Shown one piece after another: positions 12,219 through 42,192 of a stretch of DNA of 64,000 nt. Position 1 is the stretch's first letter; each line of letters opens with the position of its first letter. The notes under the pieces were generated by a model. It saw only the letters and a program-made list of their open reading frames with translations. It had not been told where the DNA came from and ran no database searches. The position numbers and the translations under genes are program-made. Origin of the DNA: Methanomassiliicoccales archaeon (GTDB taxonomy: Archaea; Thermoplasmatota; Thermoplasmata; Methanomassiliicoccales; UBA472); NCBI GenBank assembly GCA_026394375.1, contig JAPKYJ010000015.1, positions 15,265 to 79,264 of the forward strand, given 5' to 3'.

Positions 12219-12317
12219 TCCTTTCCCGTCGGGAAAAACGACTGGAGGGGAGATAAAGCTTCTTAGAGGCCAGGAAGAAGGGAAATGTTATTGTGACCCG
12301 GGACCGTACGGCAAGGC

Positions 12318-13184
12318 ATGCGCTTTGCGCCGGAGTGCGTGCCCTGCTTGTTGAACCGCGTGTTGTACGAGGTGCAACTGGTCGCCCCTGACAGAGGGGA
12401 GGAGGCCATGATCGCTTCCCTGGCCATACTTGACATGTACTACAAGAGGGGAATGAACTCCGCTGCCTTGGCGACGCATGTGCATCGTGCCGCCTACGAC
12501 ATCGCAGGTTCAAAGGATCCATACGAAGAGCTTAAGCGACGTAGCGACGAGACCGCGGAGAAGGTCTATCCAAGAGCATTGAAGCTGATCGAAAAGGCGG
12601 AGGATCGGCTGGAGGCTGCGACCGTCTGTGCCATCGCCGGCAACGTGCTGGACTTCGGCATCGAGGTTGGTATCGAGACCCCGGAACAGCTGGAGCGAAG
12701 CTTCCAGACGCTAGTGGCCGAAGGCCTGGCGGTGAACGATCTCGCCCAGGTAAGGGAGTTGCTGCGACGCTCCAAGAAGGTGCTCTACCTTCTGGACAAC
12801 TGCGGAGAATCGGTTTTCGACCGCCTGCTGGTGCGGGAGATCAAGCGCTTCGGCGTGCGCGTCATAGGGGTGGTAAAGGGCGAACCGATCCTTACCGACG
12901 TCACGATGGAGGACGCGAAGAGAGCGCACCTGGACCGGGAATTCGACGAGATCCTGTCCACCGGGCAGTTCGCCGTCGGACTGGACATCGATCGGGTGGG
13001 GGACAGGCTGGCGGAAGAGCTTCGTTCCGCCGACCTGATCATCGCCAAGGGCATGGCCAACTTCGAGGCGCTCTCCGACGAGGAACTGGGCCCGATCCTC
13101 TACCTCATGAAGGCCAAGTGCTCACCGGTCGCCCGGGCCATAGGCGCCAAGCGCAACGACAACGTGGCTCGCCTCGCGCTTTGA
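12318..13184 (+). CDS. DUF89 / ARMT1-like damage-control phosphatase family protein
   Basis: MRFAPECVPCLLNRVLYEV... has the N-terminal CxxC and ...LDNCGESVFD...AKGMANFE resembles DUF89 signatures. Confidence 0.7.
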   Translation: MRFAPECVPCLLNRVLYEVQLVAPDRGEEAMIASLAILDMYYKRGMNSAALATHVHRAAYDIAGSKDPYEELKRRSDETAEKVYPRALKLIEKAEDRLEAATVCAIAGNVLDFGIEVGIETPEQLERSFQTLVAEGLAVNDLAQVRELLRRSKKVLYLLDNCGESVFDRLLVREIKRFGVRVIGVVKGEPILTDVTMEDAKRAHLDREFDEILSTGQFAVGLDIDRVGDRLAEELRSADLIIAKGMANFEALSDEELGPILYLMKAKCSPVARAIGAKRNDNVARLAL

Positions 13185-13242
13185 GCTCCGCACCTCACAC
13201 TTTAAATACGAACGCCAGGATTCGTCGCTAGGGTTTCTCGCT

Positions 13243-14322
13243 ATGATCCACGGCGTGGGACAAGCGGTGGTGCTGGTGGGCGGAGAGGGGACGAGGCTCC
13301 GTCCCTTGACCAACCGGCGCCCCAAGCCTCTGCTGCCGGTCCTCGGGCGACCGTGCGTCGAGTATTCGTTGCGCTCGCTTTCCTCTGCTGGTATCGGCCG
13401 TGTCTTCCTTGCTTGTAGCTACCATTCTGATGCGGTCTTGAACGCCCTCGGTGACGGCAGCGAAATGGGCTTGAACATGACCTACGCCTTCGAAGAGCAA
13501 CCCATGGGCACGGCGGGAGCGGTCAAGCTGCTGGAGAAGAGGCTCGACCGCACCTTCGTCGTGGTCATGGGCGACACCTTGATGGACATCGATCTGGAGG
13601 CGGTCATCCGATCGCATCATGAGAACGGAGCAATGGTGACCATTGCCTTGACGGAAGTGGACAGGCCGACGGAGTTCGGCATCGTCGGTCTGGACGAGAA
13701 CGATCGCATAGTCCGCTTCAAAGAGAAGCCACATCCCAACGAGGTGTTCTCCAATCTCATCAATGCCGGCGTGTACGTCATCGAGAGGGATGCGTTCTCC
13801 CACGTTCCAGACGGCACGAAGTTCGATTTCTCCAAGAACCTCTTCCCCAGACTGCTGGAGGCGGGGCATCCCTTATTCGGCTCCAGGTTGAAGGGCATGT
13901 GGAAGGACATCGGACGACCTCAGGATCTTCTAGAGGCGAACATAAGTATGGCGGAGAGACGAGGCGTGGATATGACCATCGAAGGCGCGGATGTGCGAGG
14001 AAAGGTCGTCGCCTCGGAGCTGCGAGCGAAAGGCGCAAAGATACGAGGCCCCGCCTTCTTTGGGAAAGGAGTGGTGCTCGGCAACGGTTCGTGGCTCACC
14101 GAATGCGCTATCGGCGAGAGCACGCAGGTGGGAGAACGGGCGCATATAGAACGGTCCTTGGTCCTCTCGAAGGCGTTCATCGGTCCCGGAGCGAAGCTCG
14201 AGGGCTGCGTGGTCGGCGATGCCTGTGTGGTCGGTGAAGGAGCGGTGCTGAGCGACTGCATCCTGGGGGACGAGGTCAGGGTGCGGCCCGGAGAGAGCCT
14301 GAAAGGCATCACGCTGGAGTGA
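13243..14322 (+). CDS. Sugar-1-phosphate nucleotidyltransferase with a C-terminal left-handed beta-helix (candidate heptose-1-P guanylyltransferase)
   Basis: It has the N-terminal LVGGEGTRLRPLTNRRPKPLLPV pyrophosphorylase motif. The C-terminus carries hexapeptide-like repeats (GxxVxIG type). Confidence 0.8.
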   Translation: MIHGVGQAVVLVGGEGTRLRPLTNRRPKPLLPVLGRPCVEYSLRSLSSAGIGRVFLACSYHSDAVLNALGDGSEMGLNMTYAFEEQPMGTAGAVKLLEKRLDRTFVVVMGDTLMDIDLEAVIRSHHENGAMVTIALTEVDRPTEFGIVGLDENDRIVRFKEKPHPNEVFSNLINAGVYVIERDAFSHVPDGTKFDFSKNLFPRLLEAGHPLFGSRLKGMWKDIGRPQDLLEANISMAERRGVDMTIEGADVRGKVVASELRAKGAKIRGPAFFGKGVVLGNGSWLTECAIGESTQVGERAHIERSLVLSKAFIGPGAKLEGCVVGDACVVGEGAVLSDCILGDEVRVRPGESLKGITLE

Positions 14323-14367
14323 GCGGTCCACCGTTCCCTAGAAATACTCCCTCGGTAATCGGCGGGC

Positions 14368-15267
14368 ATGAGGTTCAAGGTCGACGTGTATGAGCAGCTG
14401 CTCATACTGTCCAGCATCTTGTGGGGCACGTCCTTCGTGGCCTCCAAGATCGGCGTGGGCCACGTCGACCCGTTCTACTTCGGCATGATGCGGTGGGTCA
14501 TCGGGGCGGAGCTGCTTTTGCTCATAGCCTTCCTCACCAAGAAGTTCAGACCGGAGATCTTCCGCAACAAGCTGATCTGGGGGATCGGACTGATTAATGC
14601 CGTGGGCCTCACACTGCAGAACGTGGGTATGACCCAGACCACCGCCACCAACACCGTGCTTCTGGTGGACATCAACGTGGTCTTTGTGGTCATCATCTCC
14701 TACTTCGTTCTGGCGGAGAAGATTACCCGGTACACCGTCTACGGCCTATTGTTTGGCCTAGTGGGTGTGGGGTTCGTCTCCACTGGAGGCGATCTGAGCC
14801 AGTTGACCCAAGGCAGTTTTGTCGGCAACATCCTGGTCTTTGGCGCAGGAGTGGTGTGGGCCTTCTACATCGTCTTCCAGAAGAAGTTGGTGGGGCCCAG
14901 GACCGAACCGCTGATGATTTCTGCCGCGGTCGTGACCTCCACGGCCATCTTCTCCATACCCATTGCTTTGTTGTTCACCACCAACTACGCGCTTGATCTG
15001 GCGGGCTCCGCCGTCATGGTGTACCTAGGTACTGTATGTACGGGGGGCGCCTGGCTCCTCTATATCATGGGGCTGAGAGGGAAAGGCGCGACCGAGTCCT
15101 CCATCATCCTACTGCTGGAGATCGTCTTCGCAATGGTGTTCGCTTACCTCGTTCTGAGCGAGATGCCAGGCTGGCCGACCGCCATTGGAGGCGTGTTCAT
15201 CGTGCTCTCAATCCTCTTCGTGAGCGCCAGGCCAAACGGCAACGAAAGAGAGAACAAAGGAGATTGA
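14368..15267 (+). CDS. EamA/DMT-superfamily transporter
   Basis: It has about 10 TM segments arranged as two EamA-like halves. Confidence 0.8.
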   Translation: MRFKVDVYEQLLILSSILWGTSFVASKIGVGHVDPFYFGMMRWVIGAELLLLIAFLTKKFRPEIFRNKLIWGIGLINAVGLTLQNVGMTQTTATNTVLLVDINVVFVVIISYFVLAEKITRYTVYGLLFGLVGVGFVSTGGDLSQLTQGSFVGNILVFGAGVVWAFYIVFQKKLVGPRTEPLMISAAVVTSTAIFSIPIALLFTTNYALDLAGSAVMVYLGTVCTGGAWLLYIMGLRGKGATESSIILLLEIVFAMVFAYLVLSEMPGWPTAIGGVFIVLSILFVSARPNGNERENKGD

Positions 15268-15269
15268 GG

Positions 15270-15650
15270 TCACTTCAGGAGGAGCTCCTGGGCTCGGTCC
15301 CTTTGGTCGACCCCTATAGCCACCTGGACCTCTGAGGTCTTGGGGCCTAGTATGAACAGACTCTCGATGTTGATCCCCGCCCGTGCAAGTCTCTTCGTCA
15401 ACTTCGCCAGCTCTCCAGGCTTGTCGGACATGGAGATCACCACGATGTCGCGCTCGACGAAGTCCATGCCGCTACTGGTCAGCACCCTTCGGGCGCTGGC
15501 CTCATCGTCCGTGATCACGCGGATGATGCCCGGGTTGCCGCCCAGGTCCGTTGATATCCCGCGGATGTTCACGGCGTTCTTGGCCAATACCTCAGCAAGC
15601 CGAGCGACTTCACCAGGCTTGTTCGTCACGCAGACCTCGAACTGCCTCAT
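15270..15650 (-). CDS. Tandem ACT-domain protein
   Basis: It has two ACT-like units (FEVCVTNKPGEVARLAEVLAKNAVNI and VVISMSDKPGELAKLTKRLARAGINI). The ATG at 15650 is preferred over the TTG at 15662. Confidence 0.65.
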   Translation of the reverse strand: MRQFEVCVTNKPGEVARLAEVLAKNAVNIRGISTDLGGNPGIIRVITDDEASARRVLTSSGMDFVERDIVVISMSDKPGELAKLTKRLARAGINIESLFILGPKTSEVQVAIGVDQRDRAQELLLK

Positions 15651-15742
15651 GCATTCCCCCAATCACATTGGCGGCGCTTAGTAGAAATATGTTGCGACTA
15701 GTGAGCAATGAGGCCGGAATGATTGCGAATTTCGAATAGCGA

Positions 15743-16591
15743 CTACGGTTTTGCTGGCGAATTGCCCATCATCAATGCGACTGCGAATATCGCCACCAAG
15801 ATAAGCAGACCGAGCACGCGCCCCGCCCGGTTGATGAAGAAGAACTCGAAGGAGAAGCTCGCCAGCTTTCCGAAGGCACCGCACTGCCTCATCACCGAGA
15901 GTACGATGTCAGAGCTGAGTTTGGAGTGGCCGCTGGCCCTGTCCCCGAAGGTGAAGCCGACCTCGCGCACATCCGTACCCCGAGGGCAGGACTTGAGGAT
16001 GTCGAAGAGCACCTTGAAGCCCTTCTTTTCGAACCTCATACCCTTGCGCTGGATGACCTCGCGTACCATTTCGGTGCGACCGCCGAAGAACCCGCTCATG
16101 AGGTCTGCTGATCGAGGTCGTCTCCTGAACCATAGGTAAGTAGAGGCTAGCTTGTGCGCCCCCCAGGACGCCACCTTGCGGGAGAAGTGCAGCGGGCCCA
16201 TGCCATGTCGCACGCCGACTACCAGATTGGCACCCTGCCTCATTTCCCAGTAGAGGTTCTCCACAGAAGCGGGAGGGTGCTGGAAGTCGGCATCCATGAC
16301 AACGAAGAACTCCGTCTCCACGCTAGCGATGCCCTCCATGACCGAGGCGGTCAATCCCTTCTTGGAGATGTCCCGCTCTATCAGGCGGAGCCCTGGATAA
16401 GACGCCATCATCTCTGAAACGGCCGCACCGGTCCCATCTTGTGACGAATCGTCCACCACTACGACATGGGCCCCGGGACAAATGCGGAAGACCTCAGGTA
16501 CCATGCGCTGGATGTTCTCCACTTCGTTGTAAGTGGGCAGAACTACCGTTAGGTCGGCGAACCCCTCCCTCGCCTTCTGAACCATTCCCAT
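15743..16591 (-). CDS. Family-2 glycosyltransferase, dolichyl-phosphate mannose/glucose synthase-like, with C-terminal TM helices
   Basis: It has VVLPTYNEVENI...VVVVDDSSQDGT...FFVVMDADFQHPP (DxD). The internal ATG start was chosen because the upstream part of the track ORF is low complexity. Confidence 0.8.
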   Translation of the reverse strand: MGMVQKAREGFADLTVVLPTYNEVENIQRMVPEVFRICPGAHVVVVDDSSQDGTGAAVSEMMASYPGLRLIERDISKKGLTASVMEGIASVETEFFVVMDADFQHPPASVENLYWEMRQGANLVVGVRHGMGPLHFSRKVASWGAHKLASTYLWFRRRPRSADLMSGFFGGRTEMVREVIQRKGMRFEKKGFKVLFDILKSCPRGTDVREVGFTFGDRASGHSKLSSDIVLSVMRQCGAFGKLASFSFEFFFINRAGRVLGLLILVAIFAVALMMGNSPAKP

Positions 16592-16755
16592 TCCCAACAA
16601 AAAAGCCCGTGTTAGTATATATCCCTTGTGGGATGGGACGGGCGCCTGCGAGGCGCGGGACGCCATCCGACCGTCTCTCAAACGAGCGCCCGGTGTATAT
16701 GTCCTCGGCCATAGCACCTTAAAATATCGCCGGGGGATATGCACAGGGTTCGAGC

Positions 16756-17637
16756 ATGCCTTCGGTGTCGTTGGGCGTGTGCGCGTACAACGAAGAAAGG
16801 AACGTGCGCGCCTGCCTGGAGTCGATCTCTTCGCAAGCGCTTCAGGGCTTTGAGCTCGTCGAGGTGCTGGTGATCTCCAGCGGCAGCACCGACCGCACCA
16901 ACCAGTACGTGATGGAATACGAAGCGGTAGATGCCAAGGCGAAGCTGCACGTGCAGGAAGAGAGGAAGGGTAAGAACTCCGCCATCAACCTCTTCCTGCG
17001 ACTGGCGAAGGCCGACATCCTGGTCCTGGCGAACGCCGATAACCGTCTTGAGCCCGGAGCTTTGCAGGCACTTCTCGAACCATTCCTCGACAAAAGCGTC
17101 GGCATGACCGGCGGCCACCCCGTCCCCGTCAATCCAAAGGACAAGTTCACCGGTTTCGCGGTGCACATGCTCTGGGACATGCATCACCGGGTGGCGCTCA
17201 TCCATCCCAAGGTGGGGGAGCTGGTGGCCTTCCGCGATCCAGGCATCGAACTGCCCGAAGGAACGCAATCCGACGAGGACATCATCCGCATGGAGCTGGA
17301 GAAGCGCGGTCTGCGCACGATCTACGTCCCAGAGGCGATCGTGCACAATCGTGGCCCGGGCGACATCCGAGACTTCCTCAAACAGAGGACGCGCGTCAAC
17401 ATCGGAGAGAGGTATATGCGCAAGTGGTTCGGCTACGAGCTCTCCACCTGGGACGTAGGAACGCTCCTACGTGCCTACACCACCTTCGCCAATGAGAACA
17501 AGCACCCTCTACGCATCTTCCTGGCGGTGATCATCGAACTGGGCGCTCGGGTCTACGCCACGGTGCACGTGACCTTCGACAAGGGCGACAAGCCGGTCTG
17601 GAGCCAGGTGCGCTCCACTAAGGACCTGGACCGCTAG
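16756..17637 (+). CDS. Family-2 glycosyltransferase
   Basis: It has SLGVCAYNEERNV...VLVISSGSTDRT...VLANADN, a GT-A fold with a DxD-like motif. Confidence 0.75.
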   Translation: MPSVSLGVCAYNEERNVRACLESISSQALQGFELVEVLVISSGSTDRTNQYVMEYEAVDAKAKLHVQEERKGKNSAINLFLRLAKADILVLANADNRLEPGALQALLEPFLDKSVGMTGGHPVPVNPKDKFTGFAVHMLWDMHHRVALIHPKVGELVAFRDPGIELPEGTQSDEDIIRMELEKRGLRTIYVPEAIVHNRGPGDIRDFLKQRTRVNIGERYMRKWFGYELSTWDVGTLLRAYTTFANENKHPLRIFLAVIIELGARVYATVHVTFDKGDKPVWSQVRSTKDLDR

Positions 17638-17638
17638 C

Positions 17639-18685
17639 TCAGATCTTCTTCTTGCTCTCCTTCAGTATGCGGTCCACGGCCTGGGAAAGGGTGAACGACT
17701 CGCTGACCCGGATCGGCTTCGCTCCGATCCTCCTGCCGAGGTCCAGGTCGTGCTCGCTGTCCCCCACGACGTAGGAGGAGGAGAGGTCGATCGGGAAATC
17801 CTCCAACGCCTGCATCACCATGCCCACCTCCGGCTTGCGGCAACGGCATCCCGCCTCCGGAAGATGCGGACAGTAGTAGATGCCGTCGACCTTGGCCCCG
17901 CTCTTCGCCAGGTCCTTCTTCATCTTCTCGTGGATATCAGATAGCATTGCTTCGTCAAAGTAGCCCCGCGCCACCCCGGACTGGTTTGTGACCACGATGA
18001 CCAGGAACCCAGCGTCATTCAGCCTCTTGATCGCCTTTCCCGCGCCAGGAACGAGCATAAGGTCCTTTGGCTCGGGACAGTAGGGCACGTCCTTGGCTAT
18101 AGTATCGTCCCTGTCGATGAAGACCGCCCGGCGGCCGAAGAGCGCGCGCTCGACCATGCCGCAGACCACGTGTGCGGCGGCCATGTAGCCTTCCTGTATG
18201 TGAGAGGTCTTCTTGGAAGGGATGGTGAGGGCGACATCCACCACATCCTTCAGCTTGCCTGTTGGTCCGGAGAACCCCACAGTCCTCGCCCCCAGCTCCT
18301 TGGCCTTGGCCACCGCCCGCAGAACGTTCTTCGAGTTGCCGGAGGTGGATATGGCCACCACCGCATCTCCTTCCCGGATGCTTCCTTCCACTTGGCGCTC
18401 GAACACGCATTCGTAGGAGTAGTCGTTCCCGATGGCAGTGATGGAAGAGAGGTTGGTCAGCGCCACTGCGTTCAGCGGCGCCCTATCGAACATGTACTTA
18501 CCAGAGAACTCGGCGGCGATGTGCTGCGCGTCCGCCGCGCTGCCGCCATTGCCAAAGAGCACCACCTTGTGCTTGGAGCGGAATACAAGGGTGAGCACGT
18601 CCGCCACGCGCAACACCTGCTCCGGGTCTATGCTCCCCGTCACGGAGGCGCTCTCCTCTAGCTCTCGGTCCACGAGCGATCTCAT
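17639..18685 (-). CDS. Fused sedoheptulose-7-phosphate isomerase (GmhA, SIS domain) / D,D-heptose-1,7-bisphosphate phosphatase (GmhB, HAD)
   Basis: The N-terminal half is a SIS domain (VLFGNGGSAADAQHIAAEF...ISTSGNSKNV). The C-terminal half has GmhB signatures: FIDRDDTI, VTNQSGVARGYF and CPHLPEAGCRCRKP. Confidence 0.8.
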   Translation of the reverse strand: MRSLVDRELEESASVTGSIDPEQVLRVADVLTLVFRSKHKVVLFGNGGSAADAQHIAAEFSGKYMFDRAPLNAVALTNLSSITAIGNDYSYECVFERQVEGSIREGDAVVAISTSGNSKNVLRAVAKAKELGARTVGFSGPTGKLKDVVDVALTIPSKKTSHIQEGYMAAAHVVCGMVERALFGRRAVFIDRDDTIAKDVPYCPEPKDLMLVPGAGKAIKRLNDAGFLVIVVTNQSGVARGYFDEAMLSDIHEKMKKDLAKSGAKVDGIYYCPHLPEAGCRCRKPEVGMVMQALEDFPIDLSSSYVVGDSEHDLDLGRRIGAKPIRVSESFTLSQAVDRILKESKKKI

Positions 18686-19704
18686 GCCCTGTATCTCCAG
18701 GTCTGCAATCCGTGCTTGTCGAAGTTGAAGTTTACGGCCTCTACGCCCAGCTTCTGTAGCTCCTCTGCCACCCGATGCTTGCGATCGTACTCACAGATGA
18801 AGAACATGAACCCACCGCCCCCGGCGCCGGAGATCTTCCCGCCAATGGCTCCGTTGGCCCTCGCCGTCTCGTAGATATTGTCGATGCGGGAGTTGGTGAT
18901 GTGCGAAGTGAAGCGCTTCTTCTGCTCCCAGGACTCGTGCAGGAGTTGTCCGATGCGGAGGATCTCACCTTTCATGAGCGCGTCCTTGGTCTCGAAGACC
19001 AAGCTCTTGGCGCTATCCAAGGCCTCCCGGTTCTGCCCGCTCCTGTATGCCTTCTGTTGGTCCTGGATGATGTTCGCCGAATCTCTGGTCTTCCCGGTGT
19101 AGCAGAGAAGCATGTGATAGTGCAGCTCGTTCAGCACTTCGGTCCTGATGCGCAATGGGGTAACGATGGTCTCGGAGCCCCGGAACTCCATGAAGTTGAA
19201 GCCGCCGAAGACGGCCGAATACTGGTCCTGCTTGCCTCCCGCGAAGCCGAGCTCCTCACGCTCCAGCACGTAGGCCAGGCGGGCGGTCTCGTATTGGGAC
19301 AGAGGCTTTTTCAACCACTCCGACACCGCCCCGATGATGGAGACCATGACGGTGCTGGAACCGCCAAGTCCCGAGCCAGGGGGAGCATCGCAATGTAGGA
19401 GCATATCGAAGCCTTCGGCCACCTCGAAGTGGTTGAGCACCGCCTTGATCAGATCAAGGTTGCCGTCGTAGCGCAACATGCTCCCGTTGGCGGGCCAGTT
19501 CTCGTCCTGGGCGAAATCCAGGGAACGGATCCTCATCTCCCGGTCCGCGCGAGGACATATGGTGCAATAGGCGTAACGGTCGATGGTCGAGGACAGCACC
19601 GCTCCGCCGCGCTCATCGGAATAGGGCGGGACGTCGGTTCCGCCTCCGGCGAAGCTGATGCGCAACGGGGCCTTGCTCCTGATGACGATCTTGGCCTCGC
19701 TCAT
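18682..19704 (-). CDS. GHMP-family sugar kinase (D-glycero-D-manno-heptose-7-phosphate kinase, HddA-like)
   Basis: It has SKAPLRISFAGGGTD, PPGSGLGGSS and GGKISGAGGGGF, which are GHMP motifs. Its stop overlaps the start of the GmhA/B fusion (ATGA). The ATG at 19704 was chosen as the start. Confidence 0.8.
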   Translation of the reverse strand: MSEAKIVIRSKAPLRISFAGGGTDVPPYSDERGGAVLSSTIDRYAYCTICPRADREMRIRSLDFAQDENWPANGSMLRYDGNLDLIKAVLNHFEVAEGFDMLLHCDAPPGSGLGGSSTVMVSIIGAVSEWLKKPLSQYETARLAYVLEREELGFAGGKQDQYSAVFGGFNFMEFRGSETIVTPLRIRTEVLNELHYHMLLCYTGKTRDSANIIQDQQKAYRSGQNREALDSAKSLVFETKDALMKGEILRIGQLLHESWEQKKRFTSHITNSRIDNIYETARANGAIGGKISGAGGGGFMFFICEYDRKHRVAEELQKLGVEAVNFNFDKHGLQTWRYRA

Positions 19705-19831
19705 CACGCCACGTATCCCTTCCCACGTATATACAAACCGTTGTGAGATCGGAATCATTCCAGCTCGTGTCGGGCTGGCCAGGAGCGTCCGGCATAAGTA
19801 TTTGATTCCCGGGCGTCATGAGGACGGACGC

Positions 19832-20662
19832 ATGCCTAAAGCCCTCTCCAACGAGGACAAGGGGCCGTTGGTCTCGGTCATCATCCCCACTCTCAATGAG
19901 GAGTCCTCCTTGCCATTATCGCTGCAGGCGGTTGCGGAGCAGACCTACGAAGACCTGGAGGTCCTGGTGGTCGATTCTGGATCCAGGGACCGCACGCAAG
20001 AGATCGCCCGTCAGCATGGAGCCTCCGTGGTCCCCTATCCAGGCAGGCTCATGGGCGCTCGCCGACGGGGGTTTCAAGAGAGCAAAGGCACCCTCATTCT
20101 TTTCCTGGACGGGGATCAAGTGCTCTATCCTGACACGGTCGCCCGGGCGGTGAAAGCCATGGCAGACAAGGACATGCTCATCTTGGAGGAGACGTCCTAC
20201 CGACCGAAGGGATGGCTGCAGCGATCGCTGTGCAGGCAGAAGGCGGCCATGCATGCCGCCGCCGATCCTATGACAGGAACGGGCCCCAACCTCTATCCGC
20301 GCTTCTTCAGGCGGGAGCTGCTTGCGCGGGCCTACGAAGGTCTGGACGAGGACAAGCCGTCCAAGGTCTTCGTCTACGAGGACGGATTGCTCTTCCGGCG
20401 CACGTACGCGATTTCGAAGCGCATCGGCCTCCTGTCTCAGGGCGTCATGCATATGGAGGAAGCGGGGTGGCTCGCGCTCATGCGTCATTCGTACAAGGCC
20501 GGCAAGAGCGCCCGGTCGGTGGACATGGGAGAGCTGGAGGGAGACATCGGGCGCAACGAGCCGACGATAAGGCAGCTGGTGAGGGCCATCAAAGGCAGGT
20601 ACGTCATGCTCTCGCTGGTCAAGGAGCTGTCCTTCAAGCTCGGCCATCTAGCCGGGCGCTAG
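19832..20662 (+). CDS. Family-2 glycosyltransferase
   Basis: It has VSVIIPTLNEESS...VLVVDSGSRDRT...LFLDGDQ. The internal ATG at 19832 was chosen. Confidence 0.75.
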   Translation: MPKALSNEDKGPLVSVIIPTLNEESSLPLSLQAVAEQTYEDLEVLVVDSGSRDRTQEIARQHGASVVPYPGRLMGARRRGFQESKGTLILFLDGDQVLYPDTVARAVKAMADKDMLILEETSYRPKGWLQRSLCRQKAAMHAAADPMTGTGPNLYPRFFRRELLARAYEGLDEDKPSKVFVYEDGLLFRRTYAISKRIGLLSQGVMHMEEAGWLALMRHSYKAGKSARSVDMGELEGDIGRNEPTIRQLVRAIKGRYVMLSLVKELSFKLGHLAGR

Positions 20663-21768
20663 CGATCGGGACCCCGGACGGCCATCACCGAATCGTATAA
20701 GCGCAGATACTCCTGCGCTATCGCGCCCCAGGGAGCGATCTTGTTGCTGAAGGGACCGACCTTGGTGGCCTCCCTGCCCTCCAACACATTTTGCACCGTG
20801 TCCGCGACCTTCTCTGGGTCCGGAGGCCAGTCCACGCCCACGCATCCAGGTTCGCTCAGGAACTCCACCAAAGCCTCCTTCTTCGCCACGATGACCGGGG
20901 TACCACAGGACAACGCCTCCGCCACCACCAGTCCGTAGGCCTCCGCCGCGGAGAGAAGGACCAGGGCTGCCGAAGAACGATACTCGCGGTTCAGTTCATC
21001 ATCGTCAACGTCCCCTAGCCAGGTCACGCCCCCATCCACTCCCAGCTGCTGAGCCAGTTCATGCAAAGCCCCCTCTTCGGGCCCGGAGCCGACCACCCGC
21101 AGCCTTACCTCCTTTCCCCGGTCCTTCAGGACCTTCATTGCCCGGAGCACGTGGTCGATGCCCTTGTACATCATCACCCGGCCGACGTAGAGGAGCGTAT
21201 CCTTTCTCCTTTCCACGGCCAGGGAAGGGAATTCCTTGATGCCGCTGGGTATGACCCCCACCTTCCCTTCCAACCCAGGGAAGTCCCTCAGCAGCAGGCC
21301 CCTCTCGTATTCGGAGACGCAGGTGATCTTCTCGCTCCACCTGAGGACGTACTTGCCTGCGAGGTGATATGATCGGAACAGGAGGTTGCGAAGCGGGGTG
21401 TGGCCTTTGCCATGGTAATGCGCGGAGAATATGTATGGCACCCTGCGTCGGTGGCACAGATAGGCCGATTGCGCCGAGAGCAGTATGTGATAGGAATGCA
21501 GATGCACGACGTCGAACGTACCGGGTCTCACCTCCTGAGAAAGGTGGCGCCAGACGTGCCGGTTCAGGCCGCCAAGGAGCTTGGTGTCCACGGGATATCG
21601 GATTACCTCCACGCCGTTAATCATCTCTCTTCCGCGCAGCTCACGGTCCATGGTGACCACTGTGCACCGGTGGCCGCGACGGACGAATTCCTCGCAAAGC
21701 TCCTTGACCGTGGTCTCCACCCCCCCGATGCGCGGGTGGTAGAACTTGGTCACCATGAGGATGCGCAT
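20659..21768 (-). CDS. Family-4 (GT-B, group 1) glycosyltransferase
   Basis: The N-terminus is MRILMVTKFYHPRIGGVE. The C-terminus has EAYGLVVAEALSCGTPVIV, an E-x7-E-like motif. Confidence 0.85.
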   Translation of the reverse strand: MRILMVTKFYHPRIGGVETTVKELCEEFVRRGHRCTVVTMDRELRGREMINGVEVIRYPVDTKLLGGLNRHVWRHLSQEVRPGTFDVVHLHSYHILLSAQSAYLCHRRRVPYIFSAHYHGKGHTPLRNLLFRSYHLAGKYVLRWSEKITCVSEYERGLLLRDFPGLEGKVGVIPSGIKEFPSLAVERRKDTLLYVGRVMMYKGIDHVLRAMKVLKDRGKEVRLRVVGSGPEEGALHELAQQLGVDGGVTWLGDVDDDELNREYRSSAALVLLSAAEAYGLVVAEALSCGTPVIVAKKEALVEFLSEPGCVGVDWPPDPEKVADTVQNVLEGREATKVGPFSNKIAPWGAIAQEYLRLYDSVMAVRGPDR

Positions 21769-21771
21769 CCT

Positions 21772-22992
21772 CTATCCTCCTTTTCGGGCATCGATGAAGG
21801 AGGGTCTCCCCAGCACCAAGCGGGCGGTATCGACCAACATGTAGAGCCCCAAGACGGTGAAAGCCAGTCCCACCACCCATGACCCGGGGAAGTCGATCAC
21901 CGGGACATAGCGCACATTATCCCCGGTGAAAGCCAGAGTGGCCAGGAACGGCAAGTACATCAGGAAGCAACGCAGGCTGATCCTCCAATCCTCCGAGGCC
22001 CATAGCAACAGGAAGGTCACAGGGAGGACGAAGTATCCGATCCAGATCCGTGGATAGAAGATGACGAAGGCCACCAGGACCAGCAGTGTCGCTGGCCAGA
22101 TGTCCATGCCTTTCTTCCTTCCGTACCATAACGCTCCAACATAGGCGATGATGGTGAGCGGCAGCAGCACCATTCCTGGGATGTCCAGACCACCGGTCCG
22201 CAAGAAGTCCCAGACCGATATGCCTCCCGTGGGGTTGACACTCTCCCCTCCATCTCCCGAGCCCAGCAGGTAGTACAACGGGAACTTGAGGAACTCCACC
22301 GGGGCCAGGATCAGGAACGGCAGCGATATGAGCAACGAGATGAGGACAATAGCCCCGATCTGCCATTTCCGCTCCTTCCAGGAACGGGTGCGCAGGAACA
22401 GAACGGGATAGAAGAGCCCGGGGAAGACCTTCGTCCAGACTCCTATGGCGGAGACGACGCTGCTCAGCCTTCCTTTGGCCTGGATGGCGAGCACCGCAGC
22501 GGCGATGAACATGAAGACGATGATCGATTCATCCTGGATGCCAATGGTCGATTCGACCGTGCCGAAGGGAGAGCCGAGGAAGAGCAGGGAGACGACGAAA
22601 GCGCGGAAGTCATCATAGCGTCTTAGACCCCAGTAGAGCGTCAGCGCCGTCAGTATCGTGAACAGGGAGAAGTAGATCTGGTAGGCTAGCTCCGATCCTC
22701 CGGCCATCTGCGGAGGAAGCAAGAGGTAGACGACGAGCGGGGGCGATTCCATCTTGACGTCCCGATAGAGCACCTTTCCATCCAGCACCGCCTGTGTGCG
22801 GTTTCGATAGAATGGCACATCGGAGAGCGGACCGAAGGAATCGGTGAGCGCCTTCCGGAGCCAGAGCTGGTCCAGGGCGATCAATCCTCCCAGGAGAAGA
22901 ACGCCAACTACCAGGACGACCAGCGCCCTCTTGGAGGTAGGGATGGCCCTGAGCCTCTTTTCCGTCCGGTGCAGCCAGCCTCCTCCCTTCAA
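21772..22992 (-). CDS. Polytopic membrane protein, probable GT-C-type glycosyltransferase
   Basis: It has at least 10 TM helices and an early loop motif (YRDVKMESPPLVVYLL). It sits inside the glycosylation cluster. The start is TTG and uncertain. Confidence 0.5.
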   Translation of the reverse strand: MKGGGWLHRTEKRLRAIPTSKRALVVLVVGVLLLGGLIALDQLWLRKALTDSFGPLSDVPFYRNRTQAVLDGKVLYRDVKMESPPLVVYLLLPPQMAGGSELAYQIYFSLFTILTALTLYWGLRRYDDFRAFVVSLLFLGSPFGTVESTIGIQDESIIVFMFIAAAVLAIQAKGRLSSVVSAIGVWTKVFPGLFYPVLFLRTRSWKERKWQIGAIVLISLLISLPFLILAPVEFLKFPLYYLLGSGDGGESVNPTGGISVWDFLRTGGLDIPGMVLLPLTIIAYVGALWYGRKKGMDIWPATLLVLVAFVIFYPRIWIGYFVLPVTFLLLWASEDWRISLRCFLMYLPFLATLAFTGDNVRYVPVIDFPGSWVVGLAFTVLGLYMLVDTARLVLGRPSFIDARKGG

Positions 22993-23133
22993 AGGAATCT
23001 GCCGGGAGTTGTGCTAGGGATTATTTCAATCTTTGCGCTGCAGGGCTAGGGAACGGACCGGGATGCTGAAGGAGGATCGTTCCGAGGGAAAAGGAAAAAG
23101 GGAGGGGGAGGGTGGAGCCTGGGGGATATGGCT

Positions 23134-24447
23134 CTAACCCTTCCTGCGGACGAGCACCAATGCGGCCACTGCGATCACCGCAAGTGCCCCTCCCACCGCC
23201 ATTATGCCTGCCAATCCGGCCACTTGGTCCAATGGCAGGGCGCTCTCGATGATGATCTCGTGGGTGGAGAAGCTCGGCACGTACACCATGACCTGGGCCA
23301 CGTCGCCAGAGGAGACGATGCAGTACACCGCATCGCCGGCCGCGGAACCGTTCGCCTCCAGCACCTCCAGCGGGTTGGAGGTCTGCCTGATCGCTGAGCC
23401 GTCCAACCTCACCGTCGGAGTGCCCTTGATCACGTCCAGGGTGTCCCGGTCCAGGTTCACCAGTATGACCTTGCCCTGGTGCTCATCGGAGGACACCTGA
23501 AGCTGAATGCGGTTGCGCTCCGCTTTGATCACCTGCAGGCTCAGGGCGTGGTCATACTCCATCGTCTCGTACAAGGCGTTTCCCTGATACACCATGAGCG
23601 ACATCTCCGCTCCCAGGCGGTGCCGTTCCAGCGCCCGCTCCAGGGCATCCTCGTGCATCCAGTGGTGACGCACTAGCAGCGGCTTGGATCGGAACATCAG
23701 GTGGTCATCCGCAAGCTGCGCCTTGACCACATAGTCAAGGGGCGTCCCGGTGACGTTGAGCGAGGTATGGTCCGTGCCTATGAGCGCATGCACGCCTTTC
23801 CCATGGACCAGAAGGGCGTGGTCTAGAACCTCAGCTGAGTCGTATGGCAAAGGAATGGAGGTGACGTTCAAACCCGAAGCCAGGTCCATCGTGACCTGGA
23901 CCGTCCCGTTGGCGACCACGTGGAACATGGCCGTGGGGTTATCATGGATGATGATGATCACGGACGCATTGCGGATCAACATGACCGAACCATAGGTGGA
24001 GATGTTGGTGGGAATGAACCCATCCACGCTCAGGGAATCGAAGACGTTCACCAGGACGCTGTTCCGCTTCATCTGATAGTGGGTGATGACGCCGGTGCTC
24101 TCGTTCAAGTGGAAGGCGATGAAACGTCCCTCGGCGACGCCGTCGGAGTAGTTCGGTCGGCCGAAGAATCCCATCTTCAACCCGTTGTCCATCATGAACT
24201 GCATGGTCTCCTGCATCTGCTGGGCGTTCTGATGGCCTCCGCCATTCATGTATCCGGACTGGTCCTTCCACATGCCGTTGCCTGGGCCGCCCATGCCCCC
24301 TGCACCGGCTTGAATGCTATTGCCCGGAGCTGACTGGCCTTGCATCATGCCTCCGCCAGCAAGGACGGAGGTGGAGAGGAGGGATAGGACGCTGAGGGCC
24401 AGCAGCGCGGGCAGGATCATCTTGAAGGCTCGTGCTCCCGTTCTCAT
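23134..24447 (-). CDS. Secreted, C-terminally anchored surface (glyco)protein candidate
   Basis: It has an N-terminal signal (ILPALLALSVLSLLSTSVLAGG), a Gly/Met/Gln-rich spacer, eight N-x-S/T sequons, and a C-terminal TM plus basic tail (AVGGALAVIAVAALVLVRRKG). Confidence 0.55.
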   Translation of the reverse strand: MRTGARAFKMILPALLALSVLSLLSTSVLAGGGMMQGQSAPGNSIQAGAGGMGGPGNGMWKDQSGYMNGGGHQNAQQMQETMQFMMDNGLKMGFFGRPNYSDGVAEGRFIAFHLNESTGVITHYQMKRNSVLVNVFDSLSVDGFIPTNISTYGSVMLIRNASVIIIIHDNPTAMFHVVANGTVQVTMDLASGLNVTSIPLPYDSAEVLDHALLVHGKGVHALIGTDHTSLNVTGTPLDYVVKAQLADDHLMFRSKPLLVRHHWMHEDALERALERHRLGAEMSLMVYQGNALYETMEYDHALSLQVIKAERNRIQLQVSSDEHQGKVILVNLDRDTLDVIKGTPTVRLDGSAIRQTSNPLEVLEANGSAAGDAVYCIVSSGDVAQVMVYVPSFSTHEIIIESALPLDQVAGLAGIMAVGGALAVIAVAALVLVRRKG

Positions 24448-30030: not shown

Positions 30031-30933
30031 ATGTTCGAGGTCAGGTTCCACGGGCGCGGAGGGCAGGGAGCGGTAATGGCCGCGCAGACCTTGGCGGAGG
30101 CGGCGGTGCTCGAAGGCTATCACGCTCAAGCCTTTCCCTACTTCGGAGCGGAGCGAAGGGGGGCGCCGGTCAAGGCGTTCGCCCGCATCGACAAGAAGAA
30201 GATCAGCATCAAGAGCCAGATATACGAGCCGGATCTGCTGGTAGTGCTCGACGGTTACCTGCCGGAGATCGAGCCCATCGCGGAAGGCCTCAAAGTCGAA
30301 GGAGCCGCGGCGGTGAACGTGGCCGTTGCCCCGGAGGAATACGAGCTGGGCGTGGCGGTCAGATGCGTCACGGTCGATGCGACCACCATCGCCTACGAGA
30401 AGCTCAAGGCGCCCATCGTGAACACGGCCATGTTGGGAGCGGTCGCGAAGGCGCAAGACCTGGTCAGCCTGGATACCATCATGCAGGCCATCCGGGATAA
30501 GTTCGGGGAGAAGCTGGGGGCGAGGGCCGCAGCCTTGAACGCGGAAGCGGCCAAGACCGCTTTCGAGCAGGCTCGCACCGGCAGATGCAGGGGGGACAAG
30601 GAACTGGTGCACAAGGATGCCTGGCTGCCACCCTGGAACGAGATACCGCCCGGCACGGCCCTGGGCGTGGAGAAGCGAGGAGAGATCGTGGTCGGTCCGG
30701 GCAGCTCCTGGCAGAATCCCACCGGGACCTGGAGGACCTCCTCCCCTCGTTACATGAAAGAGAAATGTATCCGTTGCCTCCGCTGTTGGTGGTCCTGCCC
30801 CGAGGGCACGATCAAGCGATTGGAGGACGACTACATGCGCTGGGACTACCGCTACTGCAAGGGCTGTGGCATCTGCGCGGAGATATGTCCCGCGGACGCA
30901 ATAGAGATGGTGCGGGGGGTGCGCGAATGGTGA
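30031..30933 (+). CDS. 2-oxoacid:ferredoxin oxidoreductase gamma subunit fused to the delta (2x[4Fe-4S]) subunit
   Basis: The N-terminus FHGRGGQGAVMAAQTLAEAA...FGAERRGAP is gamma-like. The C-terminus CIRCLRCWWSCP...CKGCGICAEICP carries the delta ferredoxin motifs. Confidence 0.85.
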   Translation: MFEVRFHGRGGQGAVMAAQTLAEAAVLEGYHAQAFPYFGAERRGAPVKAFARIDKKKISIKSQIYEPDLLVVLDGYLPEIEPIAEGLKVEGAAAVNVAVAPEEYELGVAVRCVTVDATTIAYEKLKAPIVNTAMLGAVAKAQDLVSLDTIMQAIRDKFGEKLGARAAALNAEAAKTAFEQARTGRCRGDKELVHKDAWLPPWNEIPPGTALGVEKRGEIVVGPGSSWQNPTGTWRTSSPRYMKEKCIRCLRCWWSCPEGTIKRLEDDYMRWDYRYCKGCGICAEICPADAIEMVRGVREW

Positions 30934-32102
30934 GCAAGGTGCTCTCCGCCGACCACGCCGTGGCTTGGGCGGTGCGCCTGGCCAGGGCGGAGGTGATTCC
31001 CGCTTTCCCGATCACCCCTCAGACCCTCATCGTCGAGCTAATCTCAGAGTTCATCAGCGACGGCGATCTCGATGCGGAGTTCATTCCGGCGGAGAGCGAG
31101 CACAGCGTGATGTCCGTGGCGGTGGGAGCGAGCGCGGGCGGGGTGCGGACATTCACCGCCACATCCTCGCAGGGATTGGCGCTCATGCACGAGATGCTCT
31201 ATGCCGCGCCGCAGAACCGCCTGCCGGTGGTCTTGGTCAACGTGAACCGTTCCCTGGGAGCGGCGGCGGGCATATGGCTCGAGCACAACGACTCCATGCC
31301 CGAGCGGGAGTCGGGTTGGATGCAAATGTACGTGGAGGATAACCAGGAGGCGCTGGACATGACCCTCCAGGCCTATCGCATCGCCGAGGACCACCGGGTC
31401 ATGCTGCCCATCATGGTGTGCCTGGACGGCTTCGTGCTCTCCCATACGGTGGAGAAGGTGGATGTGCCAGACCAGAACGACGTGGACAAGTTCCTGCCCA
31501 AGTTCGTTCCCCTGAACATGCTGGACGTCGGCGAACCGAAGATGATCAATCCCATCGTGCCGCCGGACTACGCCATGGAGATGCGCTACCAGTTGGACCG
31601 GGTCATGGATTCCTCGCGGAAGGTCGTCAAGGAAGTGGACGAGGCCTTTGCGGAGAAGTTCGGGCGAAGCTATGGAGGTCTGTTCGAGCCCTATCATATG
31701 GAGGACGCGGATTTCGCCCTGGTGTCCTTAGGCACTGCCACCTCCACGGCGAGGGCGGTGGTGGACGAGTTGCGCGAGAAAGGCAAGCGGGCGGGGCTGA
31801 TCAAGTTGCGCTTCATGCGCCCGTTCCCGGAGAAGGAATTGTTGGATGCCGTCGCGCACCTCAAAGCCCTGGGGGTCTTCGACCGCTCCATCGGTTTCAA
31901 CTCTTACGGACCGGTGTTCACGGAGGTCCGGAGCGCGCTGCATGCGCTCGAACTCCCGATCACAGACCACATTGGAGGATTGGGCGGGCGGGACCTGACC
32001 ACCGAGGAGATGCGAGATATCTTCGCTGTCATAGAGAGAAGCTCGAAGGGGAAGAAAGTGAAAGCGGTCAACTGGTACGGGCTGAGAGGTGAGCAGGAAT
32101 GA
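30927..32102 (+). CDS. 2-oxoacid:ferredoxin oxidoreductase alpha subunit
   Basis: The ATG at 30927 overlaps the upstream stop. HAVAWAVRLARAEVIPAFPITPQT...AESEHSVMS are typical PorA/VorA motifs. Confidence 0.9.
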   Translation: MVSKVLSADHAVAWAVRLARAEVIPAFPITPQTLIVELISEFISDGDLDAEFIPAESEHSVMSVAVGASAGGVRTFTATSSQGLALMHEMLYAAPQNRLPVVLVNVNRSLGAAAGIWLEHNDSMPERESGWMQMYVEDNQEALDMTLQAYRIAEDHRVMLPIMVCLDGFVLSHTVEKVDVPDQNDVDKFLPKFVPLNMLDVGEPKMINPIVPPDYAMEMRYQLDRVMDSSRKVVKEVDEAFAEKFGRSYGGLFEPYHMEDADFALVSLGTATSTARAVVDELREKGKRAGLIKLRFMRPFPEKELLDAVAHLKALGVFDRSIGFNSYGPVFTEVRSALHALELPITDHIGGLGGRDLTTEEMRDIFAVIERSSKGKKVKAVNWYGLRGEQE

Positions 32103-33079
32103 ACGGGACCAAGGACATCGGCAAGTTGACGCTGCGCGACGTTCCGAACAAGGACTACTTCCTTTGGGGGCACGGGGCCTGTCCCGGCTGCGGCGTGGCC
32201 ATCACGGTCAAGAACCTCATGCGCATCTTCGGCCCGGAGACGATAGTCTATGTGCCGGCGAGCTGCCTGGTGGTCTTCGGGGCGCAGTATCCGACCAGCG
32301 CCTTCGATGTGCCTTACTTCTTCACCGCCTTCGAGAACACAGGGGCGGTCATCACTGGCATAAGAGCGGCGCTCAGGCGGAGGGGCAAGAAAGCACTGGT
32401 CGTGGGCATGGCCGGTGACGGAGGCACCTTCGACATCGGGCTCCAGGCGCTATCCGGAGCGGCGGACCGCAACGAGGACGTGATGTATGTGTGCCTGGAC
32501 AATGAGGCCTATATGAACACTGGCATACAGATGTCCGGCGCCACGCCCTTTGGAGCGTGGACGACCACCTCGCCCGCAGGCAAGTTGATACACGGCAAGC
32601 GCCGCTTCAAGAAGGATATCGGTTCGATCGTGGCCGCCCACGACGTTCCTTATATGGCCACCCTCTCCATCGCCCATTGGAACGACTTCGTTCGGAAAGC
32701 GGAGAAGGCCAAGAGGGCGGAGGGCTTCCGTTTCCTGCATGTCCTCACTCCCTGCGTGCCTGGATGGAGGTCCGAGCAGTCCAGGACAATGGAGCTCGCC
32801 CGGCTGGCGGTGGAGACGGGCATGTGGACGCTGTACGAGGTGGAGCACGGAGAGCCCAGCGTCACCTACAAGCCGAAGAGGATGGAGCCGGTGACCGAGT
32901 ATCTGAAGCTGCAGGGTCGGTTCGCACACATGATGCCAGACGACATCGACGCCTTGCAGAAATGGGTGTGCAAGAAGTGGTGGATGCACTACAAGGACGA
33001 GGTCGAAGCTCCCCCCTGCGAGATGTACAAGGCGGAGAAGCCGTTGGCGCATGACGGAGACCCGCTGCACGGGGTCTGA
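32099..33079 (+). CDS. 2-oxoacid:ferredoxin oxidoreductase beta subunit (TPP-binding)
   Basis: It has GHGACPGCG... and MAGDGGTFDIGLQALSGA...NEAYMNTG, the TPP motif. It is coupled to the alpha subunit by an ATGA overlap. Confidence 0.9.
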   Translation: MNGTKDIGKLTLRDVPNKDYFLWGHGACPGCGVAITVKNLMRIFGPETIVYVPASCLVVFGAQYPTSAFDVPYFFTAFENTGAVITGIRAALRRRGKKALVVGMAGDGGTFDIGLQALSGAADRNEDVMYVCLDNEAYMNTGIQMSGATPFGAWTTTSPAGKLIHGKRRFKKDIGSIVAAHDVPYMATLSIAHWNDFVRKAEKAKRAEGFRFLHVLTPCVPGWRSEQSRTMELARLAVETGMWTLYEVEHGEPSVTYKPKRMEPVTEYLKLQGRFAHMMPDDIDALQKWVCKKWWMHYKDEVEAPPCEMYKAEKPLAHDGDPLHGV

Positions 33080-36400: not shown

Positions 36401-38155
<1,755 letters not shown>

Positions 38156-38157
38156 AC

Positions 38158-39071: not shown

Positions 39072-39301
39072 CTTCTCGACCTCAGGGCTTTCTTACTTCC
39101 ATTCTGGACCATCAGTAATAAACTGGGAAGCCACCCGCGTGCTTGTTCAATATGATAATTGCTTAGGGTTGGCGATGTAATTACTAGATTGGCGGCCTAT
39201 TCATAGTCTGACCTGTCGGCCGCGTCGTTGCCAATCCATTGCAGATCAGTTGTCGGCTCCAAAGGCAAGGATATTAAGGCGGGCAGAGTGTCGTCTATAT
39301 C

Positions 39302-39661: not shown

Positions 39662-39733
39662 AGCTGCAAATTTGATAGGGCATTTCCGTGAAAGGTCACG
39701 GGGCAAAAGGAAAGCGCGCAGCTCATCTTCTGC

Positions 39734-40066: not shown

Positions 40067-40126
40067 GTTTACTCCCCTCATTTTGTACGTTCCGTTCCTC
40101 TGAATGCCGATTGAGCAATCGGATTC

Positions 40127-40753: not shown

Positions 40754-40754
40754 A

Positions 40755-42156: not shown

Positions 42157-42192
42157 GCTCAAGCCCGCCCCGGATACTCCCGATGAAGAGTA

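Follow-up and report, generated by a model that had tools for sequence, protein, structure and literature searches.

The 64,000-nt stretch of DNA analysed here (hereafter the window) comes from a Methanomassiliicoccales archaeon (class Thermoplasmata) and carries, at 12.3-24.4 kb, a surface-glycosylation island in which three steps of a bacterial-type alpha-heptose pathway are predicted to be encoded by two genes. The first, hddA, encodes a GHMP-type kinase and the second, gmhAB, a fusion of the isomerase GmhA with the phosphatase GmhB, and together they make the putative synthesis of D-glycero-alpha-D-manno-heptose-1-phosphate from sedoheptulose-7-phosphate well supported. The hddA-gmhAB pair is conserved across the whole order Methanomassiliicoccales. 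There is partial support for reading the island as a pathway of bacterial type in which one enzyme is a fusion and another enzyme has taken over the activation step, in an archaeal glycosylation setting. For the full scheme, from heptose precursor synthesis to a surface glycan, we estimate a probability of roughly 0.6.

The kinase and the isomerase-phosphatase fusion

When compared with the NCBIfam models the kinase matched HddA (NF049969) over its full length with 318 bits, and the next GHMP family, fucokinase, followed at 117 bits. The best matches among solved structures were heptose-7-phosphate kinases, namely 3k85 from Bacteroides thetaiotaomicron (E 9e-83), WcbL of Burkholderia pseudomallei 4usk (4e-77) and 4n3o (3e-75), while fucokinase reached E 5e-24 and mevalonate or galactokinases 1e-9 to 1e-16. 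GHMP motifs II and III of HddA were invariant; motif invariance refers throughout to alignments of 120 homologues per protein (121 sequences when the fusion of the window is included). The initial annotation had called this protein an HddA-like kinase, and the HMM check agrees with HddA as the best family by 200 bits, as do the structures.

The start of the fusion gene overlaps the stop of hddA by 4 nt, and the two genes are translationally coupled in the order hddA then gmhAB. Residues ~20-185 of the fusion correspond to the sedoheptulose-7-phosphate isomerase GmhA (TIGR00441, 155 bits; PDB 2xbl, E 8e-44) and residues ~186-330 to the D-glycero-D-manno-heptose-1,7-bisphosphate 7-phosphatase GmhB (PRK08942, 169.8 bits; PDB 4pnh, E 5e-31), with TIGR01656 and TIGR01662 exceeding their cutoffs in the latter half. 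In the GmhA half H55/E59, the S113-x-S115-G116-x-S118 loop and Q164/H172 were 100% conserved in the 121 sequences, and going by GmhA structures we take these to be metal/catalytic and phosphate-loop residues. In the GmhB half D191-x-D193-x-T195, T233-N-Q-S-G and the zinc loop C272-x-H274...C280-x-C282-R-K-P were invariant in the same set. Profiles, solved structures and invariant motifs thus agree on the GmhA-GmhB fusion that had been proposed at 17639. Judged by these three lines of comparison and by the tight coupling of the two genes, the predicted HddA, GmhA and GmhB activities, three of the four steps of the pathway, can be assigned with high confidence.

By analogy with the known chemistry of GHMP HddA enzymes the kinase product would be the alpha anomer. 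The beta (ADP-heptose) route was considered and ruled out, since the kinase is of the GHMP and not the PfkB type and the nucleotidyltransferase of the island is not HldC-like; Pfam and NCBIfam scans found no PfkB kinase in the island.

A different objection is that the kinase and the fusion of SIS and HAD domains act on a non-heptose sugar, for instance a hexose or ketose phosphate, and that the cluster is unrelated to heptose. GHMP, SIS and HAD-IIIA are broad superfamilies, and the scores against the curated equivalog models lie under the NCBIfam cutoffs (HddA 318 against 600, gmhA 155 against 209 and GmhB 169.8 against 178). Sub-cutoff scores are however expected of a distant lineage, and the margins over alternative families are large, as seen from the 200 bits that separate HddA from all other GHMP families. 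Further, the GmhA-specific zinc/catalytic residues and the GmhB/HisB-type zinc loop are conserved, and the three activities co-occur as they do in bacterial hddA-gmhA-gmhB-hddC loci. We therefore find it hardly credible that the substrate is anything but a heptose.

Conservation in Methanomassiliicoccales and in bacteria

The GTDB species genomes were scanned with HddA, and the counts given here refer to the best 80 loci, 28 from Methanomassiliicoccales and about 50 from bacteria. All the archaeal loci recovered have the fused gmhAB after hddA, apart from frameshifts in a few long-read metagenome-assembled genomes (MAGs). The best 120 database homologues of the fusion were all full-length fusions, and every named one came from Methanomassiliicoccales, as did the closest named homologues of all the island genes; for HddA the identity was 70% to Methanomassiliicoccus luminyensis and 66% to Candidatus M. 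intestinalis, both of them human-gut methanogens in which the hddA-gmhAB pair is present. A neighbour-joining tree gathered the archaeal HddA proteins in a single clade, which fits one acquisition followed by vertical descent. It should be noted that this tree, like that of the nucleotidyltransferases below, was midpoint rooted without support values and is indicative only.

The recurring archaeal block can be written hddA-gmhAB-GT2b-GT2a-ACT-(DMT)-NTase-ARMT1-CDC48, where NTase stands for the sugar-1-phosphate nucleotidyltransferase and GT for glycosyltransferase. The GT content between the NTase gene and hddA varies strongly between species, while the precursor genes are constant. The island of M. 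luminyensis keeps orthologues of GT2a (49% identity) and GT2b (56%), and at 12231-15293 of its locus (L081) gmhAB directly precedes a 1020-aa protein with a weak PMT_2 match (GT-C) and two GT4 genes. Genes for pyruvate:ferredoxin oxidoreductase (POR) are found close to the island in the window (30031-33079, plus strand) as well as in M. luminyensis (L081, 6203-9200), which suggests that the island sits at a syntenic place in the chromosome, between CDC48/ARMT1 and POR.

The bacterial loci are built differently. There GmhA (~195 aa) has a gene to itself, the NTase comes in two forms, as a short HddC (~235 aa) or fused with GmhB into a protein of 386-453 aa, and hddA almost always adjoins its own NTase; a GmhA-GmhB fusion was found in none of the ~50 bacterial hddA loci. 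The HddC-GmhB fusion was seen in Treponema, Anaeroplasma and relatives (L046, L049, L051-L054, L058, L063, L069 and L078), at ~386-453 aa in most of them. As HddC-GmhB in bacteria differs from GmhA-GmhB in archaea, the pathway seems to have undergone gene fusion independently at least twice.

The nucleotidyltransferase and the fourth step

The NTase of the island consists of a catalytic domain with a left-handed beta-helix (LbH) tail, is GMPP/CugP-like, and is ~35% identical to anything characterised; its NTase motifs were invariant in the homologue alignment. An HddC identity, as implied by the pathway first proposed, fails the family test, as the NCBIfam HddC model (NF049965) gave 114 bits against a cutoff of 300 and covered the N-terminal part only. 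The best NCBIfam model was instead man1P_GTase_Rv, a mycobacterial mannose-1-phosphate guanylyltransferase, with 262 bits (cutoff 440). Among solved structures the catalytic domain scored highest against the CugP-like UDP-glucose pyrophosphorylase 8x7s (157 bits), followed by human GMPPB, Leishmania GDP-MP and Arabidopsis VTC1 (127-133 bits), the Yersinia HddC structures (88-94 bits) and RmlA (~75 bits). In the neighbour-joining tree the archaeal NTases grouped with CugP and GMPP, apart from the hddA-linked bacterial HddCs, though the identity differences behind this grouping are small (33-36% against a mean of 31%). Model score, catalytic-domain scores and tree together rule out a true HddC.

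The link to heptose is positional. In 17 archaeal loci the NTase gene belongs to the same block, at most 10 kb from hddA. In L026 (UBA354) ARMT1, NTase, hddA and gmhAB follow head to tail on one strand, with overlaps of 4 nt between NTase and hddA and of 8 nt between hddA and gmhAB, and in M. luminyensis B10 (contig CAJE01000024.1) the NTase gene and hddA-gmhAB stand at opposite ends of one expanded 16-kb GT island. No other NTase, including a short HddC-like one, was detected in any archaeal hddA locus recovered.

Given the grouping with GMPP and CugP, the enzyme could make GDP-mannose or UDP-glucose instead of, or besides, a nucleoside diphosphate (NDP)-heptose. One may hence argue that the heptose-1-phosphate branch is real, that the linked NTase is a general GDP-mannose/UDP-glucose pyrophosphorylase, and that heptose-1-phosphate is activated elsewhere or as a side activity. 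The enzyme is indeed closest to CugP-type UDP-glucose pyrophosphorylases and eukaryote-type GMPPB, and the name given to its orthologues in the JGI pipeline, mannose-1-phosphate guanylyltransferase, agrees with the best NCBIfam model. Moreover ARMT1 and CDC48, and not the heptose genes, accompany it most constantly, its distance from hddA exceeds 10 kb in several genomes, and Ca. M. intestinalis, like several Methanomassiliicoccus MAGs, has no NTase within 10 kb of hddA. On the other side stand the 4-nt overlap with hddA in the single operon of L026, the lack of any other detectable NTase, short or long, in the archaeal hddA loci, and the bacterial habit of keeping hddA beside its own NTase, which suggests that the need for one is general. 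Mannose-1-phosphate and manno-heptose-1-phosphate also differ only beyond C6. We judge a purely general pyrophosphorylase rather unlikely, and lean, by a small step only, towards the island NTase as the enzyme that activates heptose-1-phosphate, on the strength of conserved synteny. By analogy with HddA-dependent pathways, and from the resemblance to GMPP, GDP would be the more likely nucleotide with UDP second. Of the complete GDP-heptose pathway that had been proposed for the region, the isomerase, kinase and phosphatase thus stand, while the NTase step and the GDP are tied to them by synteny only.

Glycosyltransferases and a candidate acceptor

The best PDB match of GT2a was the dolichyl phosphate (Dol-P)-mannose synthase (DPMS) of Pyrococcus furiosus, 5mlz (E 5e-29), followed by ArnC and GtrB, and its NCBIfam matches included AglJ and a Dol-P hexose transferase, far under their cutoffs. 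A C-terminal transmembrane segment spans residues 310-328 of the open reading frame (ORF), and the protein is conserved at 44-61% identity in related loci, including M. luminyensis. By these similarities GT2a is a predicted Dol-P-sugar synthase-type enzyme, like Dol-P-mannose synthase. GT2b adjoins gmhAB in 24 archaeal loci and GT2a in M. luminyensis. As the GT most constantly linked to gmhAB we suggest it as the best candidate heptosyltransferase, by inference from position only. GT2c and the GT4 enzyme belong to the variable part of the island; the best NCBIfam match of the latter was Agl16 with 87.5 bits, far under the cutoff.

The 406-aa polytopic protein gave, when searched alone, only sub-threshold Pfam matches to EpsG (19.8 bits) and ALG3. 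Its family was more informative. Out of 170 representatives collected at E<=1e-3, 61 members were scanned with Pfam, and GT87 was found in 45 of these, with ALG3, PIG-M or PMT_2 in others. The AlphaFold2 model (pLDDT 94.6, pTM 0.93) was searched with Foldseek and retrieved GPI mannosyltransferase I with Dol-P-mannose (TM-score 0.68), PIG-U, ArnT, PimE, ALG3 and ALG6; the probability was 1.00 for 9wno, 5f15, 9dm5 and 9s6r, with TM-scores of 0.58-0.68 for 9wno, 9dm5 and 9s6r. D58 in the first extracytoplasmic loop was conserved in at least 90% of the sequences. The modelled protein is a GT-C fold of the GT87/PIG-M/PimE kind, predicted to use a polyprenyl-phosphate-sugar on the outer face. A Wzy/EpsG-type polymerase was also considered for it, and was ruled out by the family Pfam scan, the AlphaFold2 model and Foldseek.

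These results uphold the GT-C-like label given initially, by way of the family scan, the model, Foldseek and D58, and also the dolichol-phosphate-type setting then suggested, since GT2a matches Dol-P-mannose synthase and the GT-C is confirmed. The presence of a DPMS-like GT2 together with a GT-C suggests that one or more of the sugars are transferred on the outer face, with a Dol-P-sugar as donor.

Upstream of the GT-C gene lies a gene for a protein with a signal-peptide-like N-terminus and transmembrane-like segments at residues 11-29 and 415-433, the latter followed by RRKG. It contains 8 N-X-S/T sequons where shuffled sequences gave 2.4 (P ~0.0008), a density ~11-fold that of the neighbouring proteins. 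The sequon-rich, anchored surface protein described earlier is recovered here by both its transmembrane anchor and its sequon enrichment, and we regard it as a candidate glycan acceptor. It has only a weak MAST-domain match, and among the related loci only L004 and L005 yielded orthologues.

Proposed pathway and destination of the heptose

From the above we propose the following scheme. The GmhA half would isomerise sedoheptulose-7-phosphate to D-glycero-D-manno-heptose-7-phosphate (step 1), HddA would phosphorylate C1 to give the alpha-1,7-bisphosphate (step 2), and the GmhB half would remove the 7-phosphate to leave heptose-alpha-1-phosphate (step 3). The GMPP/CugP-like long NTase, in place of HddC, would then form NDP-heptose, most likely with GDP by analogy (step 4). 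Cytoplasmic GT2 and GT4 enzymes would assemble a dolichol-linked, heptose-containing glycan (step 5), while the DPMS-like GT2a would load a sugar on Dol-P, and after flipping the GT87-like GT-C would use this donor outside (step 6). The glycan would finally reach membrane-anchored glycoproteins, for example the adjacent sequon-rich protein, and/or lipids (step 7). Steps 1-3 are based on homology, motifs and operon structure, step 4 on synteny, and steps 5-7 on family membership and context.

Against this scheme speak the sub-cutoff equivalog scores and the affinities, neighbours and occasional distance of the NTase described above. To these should be added that no GT9-type heptosyltransferase and no NDP-heptose-modifying enzyme were found in the island, that AglB/STT3 was not found among the window ORFs scanned with Pfam (64 kb) nor in the island of M. 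luminyensis, and that the literature searched holds no glycan chemistry for Methanomassiliicoccales.

The missing AglB/STT3 also bears on the destination. The glycan may be N-linked, O-linked or attached to lipid, and the heptose may be meant for a membrane lipoglycan, a glycolipid or an exopolysaccharide and not for protein N-glycans. GT-Cs of the GT87/PimE and PIG-M types characteristically act on glycolipids. In archaea, however, aglB is commonly unlinked from the agl genes, and AglB may be encoded elsewhere in the genome; the sequon-enriched anchored protein lies, moreover, upstream of the GT-C and GT4 genes on the same strand. The wall-less relatives lend some weight to a lipid target, as the membranes of Thermoplasmatales are dominated by a tetraether lipoglycan (PMC12448462), yet the sole archaeal heptose of known location belongs to an N-glycan (PMC11407970). 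The two destinations are not mutually exclusive, and an exclusively non-protein target seems to us doubtful.

As a more far-reaching version of the scheme, we speculate that HddC was displaced non-orthologously by the GMPP/CugP-like NTase and that GT2a makes a dolichyl-phosphate-heptose donor for external GT-Cs. We consider this version a long shot. We know of no organism for which a lipid-linked heptose donor has been described, and all characterised heptosyltransferases known to us use NDP-heptose directly.

Gene organisation and gene starts

The window has a G+C content of ~60%, and Pfam scans found the archaeal housekeeping proteins CDC48, ELP3, aIF5B, aIF2-gamma and POR encoded in it; a tRNA scan of the window found none. 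The features are collected in Table 1. Every gene of the initial annotation exists at or near the place given there, although the gene for an ACT-domain-pair protein had been overlooked and some of the starts have been corrected here.

Table 1. Genes of the glycosylation island and of a region of lower G+C further along the window.
Feature	Coordinates	Strand	Evidence
ARMT1/DUF89-like metal-dependent phosphatase	12318-13184	+	Pfam PF01937, 229 bits
Sugar-1-phosphate nucleotidyltransferase (NTase), long form, 359 aa	13243-14322	+	NTP_transferase 174 bits and LbH_EIF2B
EamA/DMT transporter	14368-15267	+	Pfam EamA 140 bits, two repeats
ACT-domain-pair protein, 130 aa	15270-15662	-	Pfam ACT 53.6 bits and ACT_8 pair
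GT2a, Dol-P-sugar synthase-like	15743-16594 (ORF reaches 16744)	-	PDB 5mlz, NCBIfam, C-terminal transmembrane segment
GT2b, GT2 glycosyltransferase	16756-17637	+	Pfam Glycos_transf_2 and Glyco_tranf_2_3
GmhA-GmhB fusion (SIS and HAD-IIIA), 348 aa	17639-18685	-	NCBIfam, PDB, motifs
HddA-type GHMP kinase, 340 aa	18682-19704 (ORF reaches 19758)	-	NCBIfam HddA, PDB, motifs
GT2c, GT2 glycosyltransferase	19832-20662 (ORF from 19658)	+	Pfam Glycos_transf_2 88.8 bits
GT4 glycosyltransferase, retaining, NDP-sugar dependent	20659-21768	-	Pfam Glycos_transf_1 and Glyco_transf_4
Polytopic GT-C glycosyltransferase, predicted, 406 aa	21772-22992	-	Family Pfam scan, AlphaFold2, Foldseek
Sequon-rich membrane-anchored surface protein, 437 aa	23134-24447	-	Transmembrane-like segments, sequon count
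Integrase-like fragment	38210-38809		
CdhD/Fe-S protein	40127-40861		
ACR3/SBF-type permease	41005-42162		
ArsA	43157-44977		
Thioredoxin-DGC protein	45688-46341		

Six transcription units can be inferred, namely ARMT1-NTase-DMT, GT2b and GT2c on the plus strand, and GT2a-ACT, hddA-gmhAB and surface protein-GT-C-GT4 on the minus strand. The start of hddA is most likely the ATG at 19704, which gives 340 aa as in the homologues, and a TATA-like TTTGTATATA lies ~25-33 nt upstream of it. The homologues of GT2c start aligning at residue 58-59 of the long ORF, and an ATG is found at 19832; with this start GT2c does not overlap hddA, and the apparent 100-nt overlap is an ORF artefact. For GT2a the true start is probably near M51/M53 (M51 being 16594), because the homologues align only from about residue 61-64.

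The 475-nt space between the DMT gene and GT2a contains a real minus-strand gene, that of the ACT-domain-pair protein. A small plus-strand ORF in the gap (15268-15742) was dropped in its favour, as the minus-strand gene is conserved, has higher identity and a Pfam match. By tblastn the ACT gene was found at 51-78% identity and in the same position in 19 Methanomassiliicoccales loci, and in M. luminyensis it adjoins the NTase gene. The protein presumably binds a small ligand and is regulatory; such a small-ligand sensor inside a glycan island is unusual.

The ARMT1/DUF89 gene is co-oriented with that of the NTase across a 58-nt gap, and it stands directly upstream of the NTase gene in all archaeal loci that have one, including L026 and M. 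luminyensis. This 'damage-control' phosphatase is also found at 4048-4923 in L026, where it heads the run of genes, and at 9011-9886 in L083. Its task may be to remove sugar-phosphate side products that arise in the putative pathway. The DMT transporter shows 7 transmembrane-like segments in a crude hydropathy scan, and is a candidate flippase or exporter. Its gene is part of the variable content of the island: many related loci have it, while others, M. luminyensis among them, do not.

Further along the window, the stretch at ~38000-48000 has a lower G+C content (0.53 against ~0.60) and, with the last five features of Table 1, looks like an acquired arsenic-resistance island. On the minus strand, 60697-63948 encodes a 1083-aa protein with AAA_11/AAA_12 helicase and MTES_1575 restriction-endonuclease-like domains, which may serve defence or repair as a helicase-nuclease.

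Significance

The envelope chemistry of Methanomassiliicoccales, including the gut methanogens, is essentially uncharacterised in the literature searched. If the scheme is true, an order-wide alpha-heptose branch predicts a specific sugar in the surface glycans of gut-associated methanogens, and the single archaeal heptose precedent, that of Thermoplasma, is extended, and candidate genes for making heptose in archaea are provided. It would also be a case of pathway rebuilding after cross-domain transfer, in which GmhA and GmhB were newly fused and HddC was probably replaced. Further, an alpha-type product would differ from the NDP-beta-heptoses that are reported to activate ALPK1 (PMC11461863), and would hence be relevant to the host perception of gut archaea.

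Comparison with known systems

Heptose had initially been thought to be little documented for archaea, which is overstated. The N-glycan of Thermoplasma acidophilum contains D-glycero-D-galacto-heptose (Vinogradov et al. 2012, as cited in PMC11407970 and PMC12448462), an ADP-heptose cluster has been proposed for S-layer glycosylation in Iplasma, a Thermoplasmata lineage (PMC3750248), and archaea are reported to have functional NDP-beta-heptose enzymes (Tang et al. 2024, as relayed in PMC11461863). The JGI pipeline moreover already names the orthologues of the island enzymes 'D-glycero-alpha-D-manno-heptose-7-phosphate kinase' and 'D-sedoheptulose 7-phosphate isomerase'. No paper in the literature searched links Methanomassiliicoccus with heptose, and there seems to be no earlier discussion of the order-wide alpha-type (GHMP) branch, of the GmhA-GmhB fusion or of the apparent substitution of a GMPP/CugP-like enzyme for HddC.

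T. acidophilum, of the same class Thermoplasmata, is the experimental case of heptose on archaeal membrane glycoproteins. Its heptose is however the galacto isomer, for which the papers cited name no biosynthetic genes, whereas the manno isomer is expected from the enzymes of the island, and Pfam and NCBIfam scans found no epimerase or oxidoreductase for a manno-to-galacto conversion in the island. The NDP-beta-D-manno-heptose pathway (GmhA, HldE/HldA, GmhB, HldC) shares with the island the sedoheptulose-7-phosphate start, GmhA, GmhB and a proposed archaeal surface role. It differs in that the island kinase is a GHMP HddA and not the PfkB-type HldA/HldE, and in that the NTase is not the cytidylyltransferase-like HldC; the expected product is hence the alpha anomer and not a heptose of the beta type that is an ALPK1 agonist.

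The pairing of a DPMS-like GT2 with a GT-C is the same as in Haloferax volcanii (AglD/AglS, where the GT-C depends on Dol-P-mannose and works outside the cell), in eukaryotes (DPM1 with PIG-M/ALG3) and in mycobacteria (Ppm1 with PimE), but the GT-C of the island is only 12-18% identical to solved GT-Cs and belongs to the variable part, occurring in few related genomes.

The closest relative is the bacterial pathway to GDP-D-glycero-alpha-D-manno-heptose (gmhA, hddA, gmhB, hddC), which is well established for S-layer glycans and capsules (PMC10680097). As known from the S-layer of Aneurinibacillus thermoaerophilus and the capsules of Campylobacter jejuni and Burkholderia pseudomallei, it uses the same SIS isomerase, GHMP 1-kinase and HAD-IIIA 7-phosphatase, and the island kinase is 41-50% identical to bacterial HddA proteins whose genes adjoin gmhA and hddC. 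The archaea, on the other hand, fuse gmhA with gmhB where bacteria have a stand-alone HddC or an HddC-GmhB fusion, they have a long GMPP/CugP-like NTase with an LbH tail instead of the short HddC of ~220-240 aa, and the GT context of the island, a DPMS-like GT2 with a GT-C, is archaeal.

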